A stretch of 32,000 nt of DNA from Candidatus Heimdallarchaeota archaeon (GTDB lineage: Archaea > Asgardarchaeota > Heimdallarchaeia > JABLTI01): NCBI GenBank assembly GCA_030614005.1, contig JAUWKS010000001.1:141056-173055 (forward strand), given 5' to 3'. Of this stretch, positions 25,201 to 30,803 are shown one piece after another. Below the pieces are notes generated by a model. It was not told where the DNA came from. It did no database searches and saw nothing but the letters and a program-made list of their open reading frames with translations. How positions within the stretch are numbered: the first letter of the stretch is position 1; each line of letters starts with the position of its first letter. Both the position numbers and the translations under genes were made by a program.

Positions 25201-26995
25201 TTCGTTCCAGTTCACGCTCAACAATAACTTTCGCATATGGTGTTGGAATAGTTCTGGCTCGAATGCTTACTGTTTCACCAAGAAGCACCGTTTTTTTAGC
25301 ATCTAATGCTTTCTCTCTATAAAGAGGTTTAACTGCTCCAGTGTCAACGATTTCTTCTGTAAGAATGTAAGCTGTTCCTACCCACATTGCACCACTCATT
25401 ACATCTGGTAAAGCTGATGCAACTACAGCAGCCATTGCGGCAGAGAATCGATCTCCAATGCCTCCAGCAAAAGCTACATTAATCTTCTTTCCACTTGCTT
25501 TTATTTTATCTTGCAATCGTACTAGTTGGTGTATTGATAATTCCCATAAAACAAAACTAGTTAAAATACCGATATGACCACCACATTCCATTCCCTCTAG
25601 AACCAGATATCTAACATCTGTTTCAATTGCTTCTGAGAAAAGCAATGGAGAGGGTGTGTGCAAGAAAGTCTTAATATCACCATATCCCATAACTTCCTTT
25701 GCTAGATCTATTGTACCAGCAGCTACCACTACTATTGGTGGTTGTATTTCTTTAATTAACGCTAAGTGATTGTCTCGGGCAGTAGCATTTGCATCTAACC
25801 CAATGATTCCACAACCAAATGGGAGAGAACCTAAAGTTTCCTTGGTTTTTCGAATCAAATTTTTGGATTGGTTTTTGAATAATGACCCAAGAGCAAGATT
25901 TGGAAGAGCGCCTTCTTCAGCAATAATTTTAGCAAATTCAGGATTTTCGGAAATATTAGCCATTGGACCTTGAATTAAGGGGTACTTTATTCCCAAATCT
26001 TGGGCTAATTCAGAACCACTTTGGAACGGATAGTTATCAAGAGTAGTTTTGATTTGTTTTTTAGTTTGCTCAAGTAGACCATCAAATGCTTCTTGAATGG
26101 AGGAAAATTTCTCTGAAAAGATGTTTGTAAAAGATACATCTTGACCTACTGGTAACAAGCTATTTGCTAAAGTATTGCTATTGAAAGATTCAAGCTCATC
26201 CTCGATTTTTTGTTTAAATTCCTTTGTGCGCTCTTCTAACGAAAGACCAAGAAGACCCTTCTCTATCTTAATAAAATCTTTAACGATTTTTGTAGCTAAG
26301 CGCGCATATACTCGATATTTGTAATTTGTTGAATCACCAATAATTTTTGTATCGGTAGCATCAAGTTTAGCTAGAAAATCTTTTACGTCCTTAGATAAGG
26401 GACATTCTGGAAAGGTGTACAATTGTGTATCAAGTACAACCGCTTTAGCTCCGATAGCAAAGAGTGCAGGAGTAGTATAAAAGCCGACACCACCTTGAAC
26501 AATGAATTCAAGTCCAGCCTCTGCAAATTGTTGAGCAAGAATGAAGGAAGTTTCATCACCTACTCGACCACCAGCTTCTGCGCCTTTTAATAGAAAAACA
26601 TCTGCCCATTTTTGATTGTATGCTTCTTCTAAGGAAATAACTTCAGCAATAAGTGATATTCTTTTTTCTTTTGCTAGTTTTATATGTTCTTTGGTTAGAG
26701 TAATATCAGCGATAATAAGTATCAAACTTTGTTGTTTTGAGGAATGCTTCAAAATGAAATTCAATTGATTTTCATTTACTACTCGAATACCAATAACATT
26801 AGTTATTTCTGACATGCATTTCATTAATAATGCTTGAAATCCTTGTGTAGTCATACGTTCAAGATTGACTAAACCTATGCCACCTGCTTTGTTTACTGCT
26901 TTTACTAATCCTAAATCATTGAGTCCTAGAGGATTGTATGCCAATATCGGTTTTTTATTATCCATTATTCGTTTAAATCTTGTTTCAGCAACCAT
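16265..26995 (-). CDS. Type I iterative FAS/PKS-like megasynthase (PUFA-synthase related): ER-ER-KS-AT-KS-ACP-ACP-KR-DH-PPTase, 3576 aa
   Basis: ER2 IQGPM and EGMECGGH474; KS1 DAAC933ASS, EAH1067GT, IGH1105L; AT FPGQGSQ, GHS1442LG, AAFH1547; KS2 NAAC2037SS, SH2185ET, TGH2225AMG; ACPs LGIDT2388VK and LGIDT2486VK; KR TGGAQGI and DY2950SAAN; DH H3078RFDAVPFLP; PPTase GID3457LE and WAAKE3501A. ACAGGAGAT RBS upstream. Confidence 0.95.
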   Translation of the reverse strand: MVAETRFKRIMDNKKPILAYNPLGLNDLGLVKAVNKAGGIGLVNLERMTTQGFQALLMKCMSEITNVIGIRVVNENQLNFILKHSSKQQSLILIIADITLTKEHIKLAKEKRISLIAEVISLEEAYNQKWADVFLLKGAEAGGRVGDETSFILAQQFAEAGLEFIVQGGVGFYTTPALFAIGAKAVVLDTQLYTFPECPLSKDVKDFLAKLDATDTKIIGDSTNYKYRVYARLATKIVKDFIKIEKGLLGLSLEERTKEFKQKIEDELESFNSNTLANSLLPVGQDVSFTNIFSEKFSSIQEAFDGLLEQTKKQIKTTLDNYPFQSGSELAQDLGIKYPLIQGPMANISENPEFAKIIAEEGALPNLALGSLFKNQSKNLIRKTKETLGSLPFGCGIIGLDANATARDNHLALIKEIQPPIVVVAAGTIDLAKEVMGYGDIKTFLHTPSPLLFSEAIETDVRYLVLEGMECGGHIGILTSFVLWELSIHQLVRLQDKIKASGKKINVAFAGGIGDRFSAAMAAVVASALPDVMSGAMWVGTAYILTEEIVDTGAVKPLYREKALDAKKTVLLGETVSIRARTIPTPYAKVIVERELERIKEGMSLKDRKHQFERDNLGSTRIAALGEIWNPDGEDDKPNRFMPIDEKGQYEKGNYMIGQIVGSLRSIRTVKDLHMELIEESKKVVSTKAKSFAEQFESKEEFSKAVEPQIVQELTPIPDDILQGEGVAIIGLGGVFPDALNIDQYWQNIISGVYSIKEIPKERWSNDHSLYYSPDPFEPDKTYAKIAATIDDFKFNSLEFKIPPKVAQKIDRVQQFALVAAREALIDANILDKDNSRTATIVGNSMGGSIRVDYNRRIFLAESYRSFEKCASFSDIKEDVWRKVKEELKTIYDKELMAINEDSMPGELSNVIAGRIANVFNLRGKNMTCDAACASSLAALSVSVKGLLDNEYDTVLCGGSDCSLDPSIFVKFAKIGAISAEGSYPFDARANGFVMGEGSGFVVLKRLSDAERDGDRIYAVIRGLGAASDGKGKGITAPNPIGQQLAIQRAFDQAGVSFSDIQFLEAHGTATGVGDVVEMAVLNEMAENSPKASIVISSVKSQIGHLKSAAGIASIIKTALAIYHKKFTPTANFEIPNPKVAWDTSPFYVITETKDWPQPTSGHRIAGISSFGFGGTNYHAIMEEYIPGETIGHLPKLLSKEELESLTRRISQMTSQSADAQGFTTVFDESSWKDYYDKNIVLETEPLFIGGASDVALLKNLEAFKTKIPKSTFDKNGTGSRIHDISQETMGALSQKKRIGIVSKSLDDLPSLIDSAISGQQDKAKRLILRNKGIFYGEDHTLGKIAFMFPGQGSQYVRMGKELWDKYDIVKEVFKEADEVTQAELGFSLTEIIFAIGKDDAESKALLRKTEVTQPAIFAVNIGIYRLLRSFGIKPDFVAGHSLGEYAALVASGIVSFKDGLMAVIPRGKAMSLFDSDDNGMMASVSAGPQTVDDVLKKVKGYAIAANKNTPSQTVISGASPAITEAIKIFIEKGITAIPLPVSAAFHSEIVAPAEKFLRESLEKLTYSKPTIALSSNVTGGIYPKTRQEIIDLLCKQVYSPVEWMKQIKNMYEEYGVRTFIEIGPKYVLTSFAKSILEGKKDFVALASNHPKRGAMQHLNEVLAALGAFGYPLKIPNKDDSIYSEEFRNPTKRFYKKKAVPITSIAPSIGKTKVITKESPFDVLAFGDLATITKNDDFSEYLKLQAPAINAFLKVGYDTYQNIIAKALETKKEIDRLNINTDAVGVTGIAIGLPGKNRKVFDDSNFDAILSGMNFIEKTSSQLREKIVEKNIVRLVKDAVKGAQFQSITDVSEVIKLAAQKGEFDLTKDYGVQAEFTEIFDITFQLALAAGIEALRDAGIPLMPLKIKTSVGKEISKGWVLPESMRDETGIIFASAFPVSNNLISIVSQSLADKYASKHKEETILLFDELIQQISNKASREKVKIWFEKNKVALDGDKNSKYIFSRKFLFEVLSMGHSQFAQFIRARGPNTQVNAACSSTTLAIGIAEDWIRNGRCKRVIVIAADDITSDETFQWFGAGFLAVGAATTSEIVEEAALPFDNRRHGMIVGMGAVGIVLESESAMNERGVKPIVDLMGTHLVNSAFHGTRLDREHISSQMNNFMTKIEKKYNISRDDIAKQLVFVSHETYTPARGGSASAEIDALRKTFGASLDKVVIANTKGFTGHAMGAGIEDVVAVKMLQKGIIPPVANFKEVDPELGVLNLSKGGKYDIKYAMRFSAGFGSQLAMVLYRLNTASERFDSKDYDQWLATIGGSRSTMEIVNNTLRMTEDPNVIKALKQTTAPKSSVVSASNSEIVTMIISLLSEKTGYPADMIEADMHLEEDLGIDTVKQAELFGMLRSQYNLPREEGVRIQDYYSVNKIAEYLATKMGGVGSTPVGVTAATGTSSISISEISKTIIDLVSEKTGYPTDMLEADMELEEDLGIDTVKQAEIFGILRSKFDLPREEGIRIQDYSTITKIAHYVSERIGSGEKSAHVAGQAAKKPIEKVPAKRMLLQLIPSQIKTKGLDLKQKRFIVIGDNNQFTNEIVAILEKKKAQVVKTIHLKSMKSLDKLQAALPEQQVDGMVFIAPKTNDKTKHDFVARSFFVCSRYLFFSKKPIVLAIDNQFENLGWKQAKANPIVGSLTGFTKALAREFVGGTVKFVSCQKPKLAIDELCSGDGSVEVVYNSAGKRQIFITTVEELVEASEKYEPTKDDLIVITGGAQGITFEITKKIAEKYQAQLALFGRTKIPKNIKELLALDEAGLTELKNTMIAKMKETDDKVTPVKIEKAWSKTAKAIAIQKGVQELVSLGSKTKYYSVDVVNTEKMEKTLLKVVSDFKTSITGIVHGAGLEVSKFIADKELVDFNRVYDVKAIGYDNLINNIDLKKIQFIICFSSVAGRYGNGGQVDYSAANDYLSKSCWNLRAKGIRATSICWSAWADVGMATRGSIMTILEYAGVTPIQVNEGINAFINELESGQDAEVVIAGKLGVLLESPLPAVLVDHKVYPMIGSIKRNFDGSISTERDFSLTTDLYLNHHRFDAVPFLPGVMGIELFAELAKLAYPKKVLSGFDNIEFNSAIKFLKDNPRALKARISYGKTPEVRIESDFIKDGKKLGDTKLHFKGTVVFGPRKVAEKSMVKLTKKQLINKGDIYKILPHGSLFQVLHSINTIDKEIIGAGSIPINNQFSWDIKELIANPLAIEAAFQAMGLLDIIKDDRLGLPYSVKQLTYFDVAGEPEIIRGVKKGENDFGSTYDFEVLTKTGEVILKAEDYNTVKIPLAASLEIVENIRLKQVKQLFTVPKDSSLEAVSVKQINEQLKSDSEYLTSNLQTDELEKYHSIKVEKRKTEWLAGVIAAKTALRNLMPKLENKDILIEKSNLGKPIAVTNKGKKKTFVSITHSNGYAVALVSSTFNIGIDLEIIEPRDSSLTDELLGPQEQSFLKIQNKDVADDFLTRIWAAKEAASKVLGIGLNIDLHDLEVVELQNKSITVQVDPTKLPAEANKITKQFAKSKSGIQLKAQLSQNNDFVAAVCYIPK
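19424..19933 (-). repeat. Tandem duplicated ACP-domain coding segments (offset 294 nt)
   Basis: Two similar ~215-nt units (about 19718-19933 and 19424-19639) both encode SEKTGYP.DM.EADM.LEEDLGIDTVKQAE.FG.LRS...LPREEG.RIQDY. Confidence 0.9.

Positions 26996-30803: not shown

Follow-up and report, generated by a model that had tools for sequence, protein, structure and literature searches.

A three-subunit biotin-dependent carboxylase linked to a PfaA-like megasynthase in Heimdallarchaeota and other Asgard archaea

The window analyzed here is a stretch of 32,000 nucleotides from a Candidatus Heimdallarchaeota archaeon (contig JAUWKS010000001.1 of assembly GCA_030614005.1, positions 141,056 to 173,055; G000:C71:141056-173055 in our numbering), in which three genes for a biotin-dependent acyl-CoA carboxylase stand beside the gene of a PfaA-like megasynthase. 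These three genes probably encode a heteromeric acetyl-CoA carboxylase (ACC) making malonyl-CoA for the neighboring synthase, with carboxylase, synthase, and an adjacent hydrolase forming one conserved module. In the proposed scheme, biotin carboxylase (BC), a small biotin carboxyl carrier protein (BCCP), and a single-chain PccB-type carboxyltransferase (CT) would form an ATP- and biotin-dependent ACC. Lys122 of the carrier would be biotinylated by BirA, whose gene lies elsewhere in the genome; BC would load CO2 onto the biotin, CT would transfer it to acetyl-CoA to give malonyl-CoA, and the malonyl-type acyltransferase (AT) of the megasynthase would take up the product as extender unit. The integrity of the genes, their motifs, their uniqueness in the genome and their conserved linkage to the synthase were observed directly, and are described below.

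Linkage Across Asgard Archaea

The first-pass annotation of this DNA had named synteny in related genomes as a check on the physical link between carboxylase and synthase, and the linkage proves to be conserved far beyond the genus, in Asgard archaea as well as in other phyla. The nearest named relatives of the source genome are Candidatus Heimdallarchaeota metagenome-assembled genomes (MAGs), and in the same-genus MAG HM7_B34 the cluster proteins are 88-94% identical to those of the window. Among 59 relatives of the same class the megasynthase is present in 34, all of which (34/34) carry a CT orthologue that is 56-94% identical; the 25 relatives without the synthase have at best a 35%-identical CT paralogue. 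An example is family f3, whose 22 genomes lack the synthase and have this 35%-identical paralogue as sole CT. When the sample is widened to 399 genomes of the phylum, the synthase is found in 65 including the source genome, distributed over five family codes in the source's class and two in other classes. CT lies directly beside the synthase in 55 of the 64 synthase-bearing relatives, nearly always just upstream and on the same strand, and the short spacer between the two genes (15-170 nt) is likewise conserved. Eight further relatives have CT and synthase on different contigs of fragmented assemblies, and no CT was found in the remaining one, a small genome. There was no clear case among these 64 relatives of CT and synthase lying far apart on one contig.

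The gene order around this pair has been rearranged repeatedly, and across three such layouts BC, BCCP, and the hydrolase remain part of the cluster. In families f1 and f5, BC, BCCP, and hydrolase adjoin one another and are divergent from CT-synthase, the arrangement also of the window, and in f5 a biotin ligase gene follows the hydrolase. Family f2 has the order CT-synthase-hydrolase, the hydrolase directly after the megasynthase, with BCCP and BC just downstream and the biotin ligase gene on the CT side and divergent from it. The linked ligase genes of f2 and f5 were seen at loci L012, L008, L010, L014, and L019. In the closed f2 genome G026 (L012:6321-7872) a PlsY-type glycerol-3-phosphate acyltransferase gene stands beside the ligase, giving the order BirA-PlsY-CT-synthase-hydrolase. 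Family f4 has a colinear series of FabH-like gene, BC, BCCP, CT, synthase, and FabI-like gene. Because the linkage is retained through these rearrangements, we regard it as strong evidence that carboxylase and synthase are a functional module, and since the pairing has been kept in this way in several Asgard families, the synthase would seem to be in use rather than a dead import.

Two variants of the pair itself were also seen. L013 (G042) and L020 (G059) contain two tandem Ile-type CT genes with a reversed BC between them (CT, reversed BC, CT, synthase), which looks like a recent duplication within the cluster. In L038 (archaeon Dive100_bin10.34) and G084:C213, CT and the ketosynthase (KS) region are separated by about 5 kb, as against 2.1 kb for the two enoyl reductase (ER) barrels, and an extra gene or domain may lie between them.

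Linkage in Other Prokaryotes and Shared History

A survey of the synthase family across GTDB species, based on a search with the first KS (KS1), covered 80 loci with their flanks as fetched. A CT gene lies within the fetched flank in 29 of these and a BC-like gene in nine more. Eleven of the 13 archaeal loci have CT, and the other two are cut at the synthase start. All Elusimicrobia loci with enough flank have a linked carboxylase gene, and linkage also occurs in several Chloroflexota, one Proteobacteria MAG, and one Thermoplasmatota MAG; most Anaerolineaceae loci and the Myxococcota loci have no carboxylase gene in the fetched flank. BC-like matches downstream of the synthase in Actinomycetota have 29-39% identity and were not taken as proven carboxylase subunits.

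In a quick maximum-likelihood tree of CT, the Ile-type copies (see below) form a clade (SH-aLRT 98) in which every copy but one is megasynthase-linked, with Asp-type copies and the f3 paralogues outside. The KS1 tree places the Asgard sequences in one clade (98) beside a CT-linked Elusimicrobia clade and a Thermoplasmatota/Proteobacteria clade; in this tree the megasynthase is nested among bacterial sequences. The two trees show matching subgroups, a pattern that fits CT and synthase having been inherited and transferred as a unit.

The Carboxyltransferase and Its Substrate Site

All three carboxylase genes, CT on the minus strand and BC and BCCP on the plus strand, are intact in the window. 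CT matches positions 1-492/493 of Carboxyl_trans (PF01039, E 1.7e-192) with both halves in one chain. Its closest solved relative is PccB of Streptomyces coelicolor, aligned end to end at 671-674 bits, and other propionyl/acyl-CoA carboxylase beta chains are also among the closest; the top match in the PDB is 1XNW, the D422I mutant of the same PccB. The oxyanion glycine pairs are kept in GPSAGGAVY and YGGAYIVM, which align with PccB G182/G183 and G419/G420. A preference for substrates such as methylcrotonyl-CoA had been put forward as what would speak against extender-unit supply; CT falls in the PccB/AccB clade and not in the methylcrotonyl-CoA clade. Beta chains of methylcrotonyl-CoA carboxylase match it at only ~238 bits vs. 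674 for PccB, which speaks against a methylcrotonyl- or geranyl-CoA carboxylase.

The CT residue aligned to Asp422 of S. coelicolor PccB is Ile425 (GGAYIVM). According to the summary of Diacovich et al. (2004) given in PMC7835884, Asp at this site goes with propionyl-CoA specificity and Ile, as in AccB I420, with acceptance of acetyl-CoA besides propionyl- and butyryl-CoA. PMC7835884, which has data of its own as well, describes the site as important but not as the sole determinant. The hydrophobic Ile425 supports the prediction that CT is of the acetyl-CoA-accepting, AccB-like subtype. All megasynthase-linked CTs that were extracted have Ile at this position, except for Cys in three Chloroflexota, and the two unlinked second CT copies in family f4 have Asp. 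Methylmalonyl-CoA mutase is present in 3/3 f4 genomes tested and in 0/3 genomes with only an Ile-type CT (the source genome, G010, and G026), a small sample of related genomes. This pattern is compatible with a division of labor between an Asp copy for propionate metabolism and an Ile copy for the synthase, and the contrast between linked and unlinked copies could aid the annotation of carboxylases in metagenomes.

The AT of the megasynthase had been likened to malonyl-selective enzymes, and both motifs are indeed in place, GHSLG at residue 1440 and AAFH at residue 1544. These are malonyl-type motifs, by which the AT is predicted to be of malonyl type. It is conceivable, if unlikely, that propionyl- or butyryl-CoA is the main substrate of the carboxylase, giving methylmalonyl- or ethylmalonyl-CoA, with the synthase producing branched chains or using both kinds of extender. 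The closest solved relatives of CT are, after all, named propionyl-CoA carboxylases, Ile-site enzymes carboxylate all three short acyl-CoAs (PMC7835884), and the AT motif rules derive from modular polyketide synthases and FabD rather than from the megasynthase's own family. However, the AT has GHSLG and AAFH and not GHSQG and YASH, and in Asgard genomes with the mutase an additional CT, of the Asp type, is encoded away from the synthase.

Biotin Carboxylase, Carrier, Ligase, and Hydrolase

In BC the Biotin_carb_N, CPSase_L_D2, and Biotin_carb_C domains are all full length (Pfam); it matches solved biotin carboxylases at 464 bits and retains the glycine loop and the ERECSIQRRNQK and NPRIQVEHPVTE motifs. 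Its gene, accC, begins with the ATG at 28837. The open frame also contains an upstream GTG (28828), but the Pfam N-domain starts at the ATG residue. BCCP has a Biotin_lipoyl domain with the motif ESMKM, in which Lys122 is the predicted biotinyl-lysine. The biotin ligase that the first-pass annotation had named among its checks is present in the genome, as a BirA-type gene on contig C73 (TIGR00121, 169.6 bits, above the cut-off). The hydrolase has a GVSLGG motif and a C-terminal His, and among solved structures it is closest to generic esterases. It is the fifth gene conserved in the cluster and may serve to release the chain.

That CT is instead a decarboxylase or transcarboxylase like the methylmalonyl-CoA decarboxylase MmdA, and no part of a carboxylase, is scarcely credible: its best NCBIfam model is TIGR01117 mmdA, but since the 755.7 bits fall under the cut-off of 998.8, no membrane OadB/MmdB subunit (PF03977) was found in the 90%-complete source genome, and an ATP-dependent BC of the ATP-grasp type with intact motifs is encoded next door, the enzyme is to be read as a carboxylase.

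A Single Carboxylase With One Recognizable Consumer

The source genome (3.6 Mb in 126 contigs, 90% complete) contains a single CT and a single BC, and its only clear biotinyl domain is that of BCCP; all three lie at this cluster. Searches of this genome gave no match for methylmalonyl-CoA mutase (PF01642) or 4-hydroxybutyryl-CoA dehydratase (PF11794), and no PycB/OadA-type domain was found. The markers of the 3-hydroxypropionate/4-hydroxybutyrate (3HP/4HB) cycle, whose absence the first-pass annotation had proposed to check, were thus not detected as far as the dehydratase and the mutase are concerned. PF00109 ketosynthase domains occur in the megasynthase only, apart from a thiolase, and the thiolase-fold genes outside the megasynthase are solely an adjacent pair of thiolase and HMG-CoA-synthase-like gene, as a mevalonate pathway would require. 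G026, a closed genome from the same class, resembles the source genome in having one CT and one BC and in lacking the mutase, which was not found in G010 either. Because no mutase, dehydratase, or PycB was found, only the mevalonate-type thiolase pair stands elsewhere and G026 is alike, the megasynthase appears to be the only recognizable user of malonyl- or methylmalonyl-CoA in the genome.

These results bear on a further explanation, in which the enzyme is a general housekeeping carboxylase for propionate or amino-acid catabolism, 3HP/4HB CO2 fixation or anaplerosis and lies next to the synthase only by chance. We consider this quite improbable. The unfound mutase, dehydratase, and PycB speak against it, as do the adjacency kept in 55/64 Asgard genomes and several bacterial phyla despite rearrangements and the want of a CT orthologue in the synthase-lacking family f3; in its favor, this is the only biotin carboxylase in the genome, and known archaeal three-subunit enzymes serve the 3HP/4HB cycle or propionate metabolism.

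The reading of the carboxylase as a supplier of extender units, which the first-pass annotation had offered, is thus supported by synteny, the biotin ligase, the unfound 3HP/4HB markers, the position of CT in the PccB/AccB clade, and Ile425. Several points weigh against it. Substrate preference, flux to the synthase, and co-regulation are inferred from sequence and gene order. The Ile-type enzymes studied are promiscuous toward acetyl-, propionyl-, and butyryl-CoA, and the specificity site is not their sole determinant. With a genome that is 90% complete, missing pathway genes are "not found" rather than "absent." A sole carboxylase would also have to serve any other need for malonyl-CoA, so that "dedicated" is not to be taken strictly. 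T-runs in archaea can terminate transcription, and those in the 61-nt spacer between CT and megasynthase (T5, T8, and T5) may do so, which would place the two genes on separate transcripts. Finally, the trees come from quick searches and include no broad set of unlinked carboxyltransferases as outgroup.

Relation to Known Systems

The carboxylase itself is an ordinary family member and the cluster type was cataloged in 2011, as the "Type R" secondary lipid synthase, which is scattered over unrelated phyla including Elusimicrobia and Chloroflexi (Shulse and Allen, 2011; PMC3098273). Along the megasynthase, Pfam domains follow in the order NMO-type ER, KS, AT, second KS-like region, PP-binding, ketoreductase (KR), and C-terminal phosphopantetheinyl transferase (PPTase). 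As in Type R, it is thus a PfaA homologue with KS, malonyl-type AT (MAT), a second KS-like region, acyl carrier protein (ACP) and KR, together with a PPTase, and the KS1 search recovered the same bacterial phyla. The cluster differs from Type R as published in its Asgard host and in the synthase, to which the PPTase, instead of being a separate gene, and two FMN-type ER barrels are fused; it also includes all three carboxylase subunits and the hydrolase. In the published work just one of five clusters, that of Koribacter versatilis, contained a gene encoding part of an acetyl-CoA carboxylase, which was not treated as a feature (Shulse and Allen, 2011).

In fold and family CT is like PccB (1XNV, 1XNY) and AccB of S. 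coelicolor, and at the switch position, PccB 422 or AccB 420, its residue 425 is Ile as in AccB. In the actinobacterial enzymes BC and BCCP are fused in an alpha chain and there is a small epsilon subunit, whereas here two genes encode BC and BCCP and the cluster has no evident epsilon gene. The carboxylase of the 3HP/4HB cycle (Metallosphaera, Acidianus, Nitrosopumilus) also consists of BC, BCCP, and a single-chain CT, and the CT of S. tokodaii (1X0U) matches at 641 bits; in contrast to it, the enzyme described here has a megasynthase as genomic partner in place of cycle enzymes, and the cycle markers were not found. Actinomycete polyketide and lipid clusters also hold dedicated carboxylase genes, for example accA3-pccB-pccE for lipstatin in S. 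toxytricini (PMC2886142), and the likeness lies in a carboxylase encoded beside the synthase that it supplies with extender units. Those hosts, however, have housekeeping carboxylases as well, whereas the linked enzyme is the only one found here. The comparison with eukaryotic lipogenesis made in the first-pass annotation holds as a functional analogy, in that malonyl-CoA supply is paired with a multidomain synthase as in eukaryotic ACC and type I fatty acid synthase, but not in structure: eukaryotic ACC is one multidomain chain and the carboxylase here is of the three-subunit prokaryotic type, while the synthase is PfaA-like and not of animal or fungal fatty acid synthase architecture.

The Heimdall and Asgard reviews and genome papers that were searched make no mention of the synthase or the carboxylase, which is no proof that none exists. 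New with respect to the literature searched are the Asgard host, the status as sole carboxylase, and the breadth of the conserved linkage.

The Heimdall group of Asgard archaea contains the closest known prokaryotic relatives of eukaryotes, and the origin of fatty-acid membranes in eukaryotes is an open question. To our knowledge, archaea are generally described as being without ACP-based, malonyl-CoA-dependent acyl-chain synthesis. An archaeon near the eukaryotes nonetheless appears to keep its single biotin carboxylase to feed a megasynthase of the fatty-acid/polyketide type. It is tempting, though at present rather doubtful, to go further and suppose that de novo synthesis of fatty acyl chains takes place in Heimdall-group and some Loki-type Asgard archaea, with ACC kept solely for the ACP-type megasynthase and the chains entering glycerol-phosphate ester lipids via enzymes such as PlsY, which adjoins the cluster in one family. 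If this were true, archaea would have a functioning route of their own across the "lipid divide." The system offers convenient experimental handles in one biotinylated protein, one residue (Ile425), and bicarbonate labeling of the product.

Features of the Window

The features of the cluster are collected in Table 1. An 8.3-kb contig in X1, another public run, covers 26500-30900 across the gene junctions, and a contig in X2, likewise from another public run, covers 26586-27235 with zero differences. Since the junctions are bridged in this way by contigs from other public runs, of sediments and cold seeps, the gene layout is not an assembly artefact. Its details agree with the first-pass annotation: the megasynthase ATG lies at 26995, directly after the spacer that separates it from the CT gene upstream on the same strand, the divergent region extends from the CT start to the accC ATG, and accC and accB are joined at TAATG, the accC stop TAA (30310-30312) overlapping the accB ATG (30312) by one base. 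Rfam and tRNA scans of the window gave no matches.

Table 1. Coordinates of the carboxylase-megasynthase cluster, numbered from the first letter of the window.
Feature	Position	Strand	Basis
Carboxyltransferase (CT), 532 aa, single-chain PccB/AccB type, Ile425	27057..28655	-	PF01039
CT-megasynthase spacer, 61 nt, SD-like ACAGGAGAT and T5/T8/T5 runs	26996..27056	-	sequence reading
PfaA-like ("Type R") megasynthase, 3576 aa, presumed malonyl-CoA consumer	16265..26995	-	Pfam
Divergent intergenic region, 181 nt	28656..28836	.	sequence reading
Biotin carboxylase (BC, accC), 491 aa from ATG	28837..30312	+	Pfam
Biotin carboxyl carrier protein (BCCP, accB), 163 aa	30312..30803	+	Biotin_lipoyl domain
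Alpha/beta hydrolase, 253 aa, 17 nt after accB	30820..31581	+	Hydrolase_4/Abhydrolase_1

Spacers and Candidate Regulatory Elements

The ribosome-binding site ACAGGAGAT that had been noted for both minus-strand genes is present at 27011-27003 (megasynthase) and 28672-28664 (CT). This 9-mer occurs 31 times in the genome vs. ~23 expected from composition, and GGAGAT is the genome's general Shine-Dalgarno (SD)-like hexamer, with 1859 occurrences vs. 1251 expected. Within the genus, conservation is limited to GGAGA(T/A) ahead of the megasynthase and to CAGGAGAT ahead of CT. The shared 9-mer was therefore rejected as a special coupling signal, GGAGAT being common genome-wide and only the core being conserved in relatives.

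In the divergent region, the CT SD (28664-28672) is followed at 28673-28700 by an inverted repeat, CACACAGT-N12-ACTGTGTG, which abuts the ribosome-binding site such that its mRNA 3' arm borders the SD. The repeat is kept in the closest relative, G010, and in other species only TGCCAAAC is conserved. The region also has two TTAC-A-GTAA palindromes, one at 28741-28749 and one at 28783-28791; the latter is part of TTTTACAGTAAAA (28781-28793). A TATA-like CTTTATAG stands at 28805-28812, ~28 nt before the accC start. Conservation of this TATA-like element and of both palindromes extends over five species of the genus. The palindrome copies (28739-28751 and 28781-28793) are each upstream of a TATA-like element, and the two are likely an operator pair for a regulator, judging by their sequence. 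Genome-wide, the palindrome TTTACNGTAAA is not enriched (17 vs. 15 expected; 5 vs. 1.7 for the 13-mer), and for want of such enrichment it was rejected as the mark of a regulon and counted as a locally conserved element only.

Variants of the Megasynthase and a Neighboring Gene

The family f4 megasynthase is without the two N-terminal FMN-type ER barrels and begins at the KS. Directly after it follows a gene for a FabI-type enoyl-ACP reductase (adh_short_C2, E ~1e-70; L025:9723-10517 in G014 and L026:1925-2761 in G022), in what looks like a replacement of the ER by a non-orthologous enzyme, an indication that complete reduction of the chain is important. At the head of the f4 cluster, adjoining BC, is a FabH-like gene (ACP_syn_III_C) of 317-320 aa (L016:4722-5675 in G018 and L018:5751-6713 in G022), possibly a priming ketosynthase.

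Ca. Heimdallarchaeum aukensis is a member of the source genome's class, and its genome is known for unusual mobile elements (PMC8813620). In its closed genome the megasynthase is split into two frames of 1510 and 2729 aa (G016:C1:483019-488524; L069); part of the KS region occurs twice, and there is a gap of ~850 nt. This could be an insertion or duplication within the megasynthase gene.

Directly downstream of the megasynthase in the window (14295-16151) is the gene of a 618-aa protein that has no family match apart from tetratricopeptide (TPR) repeats. This TPR protein keeps its place in the genus, where it is 87% identical in G010 and 68% in G009.

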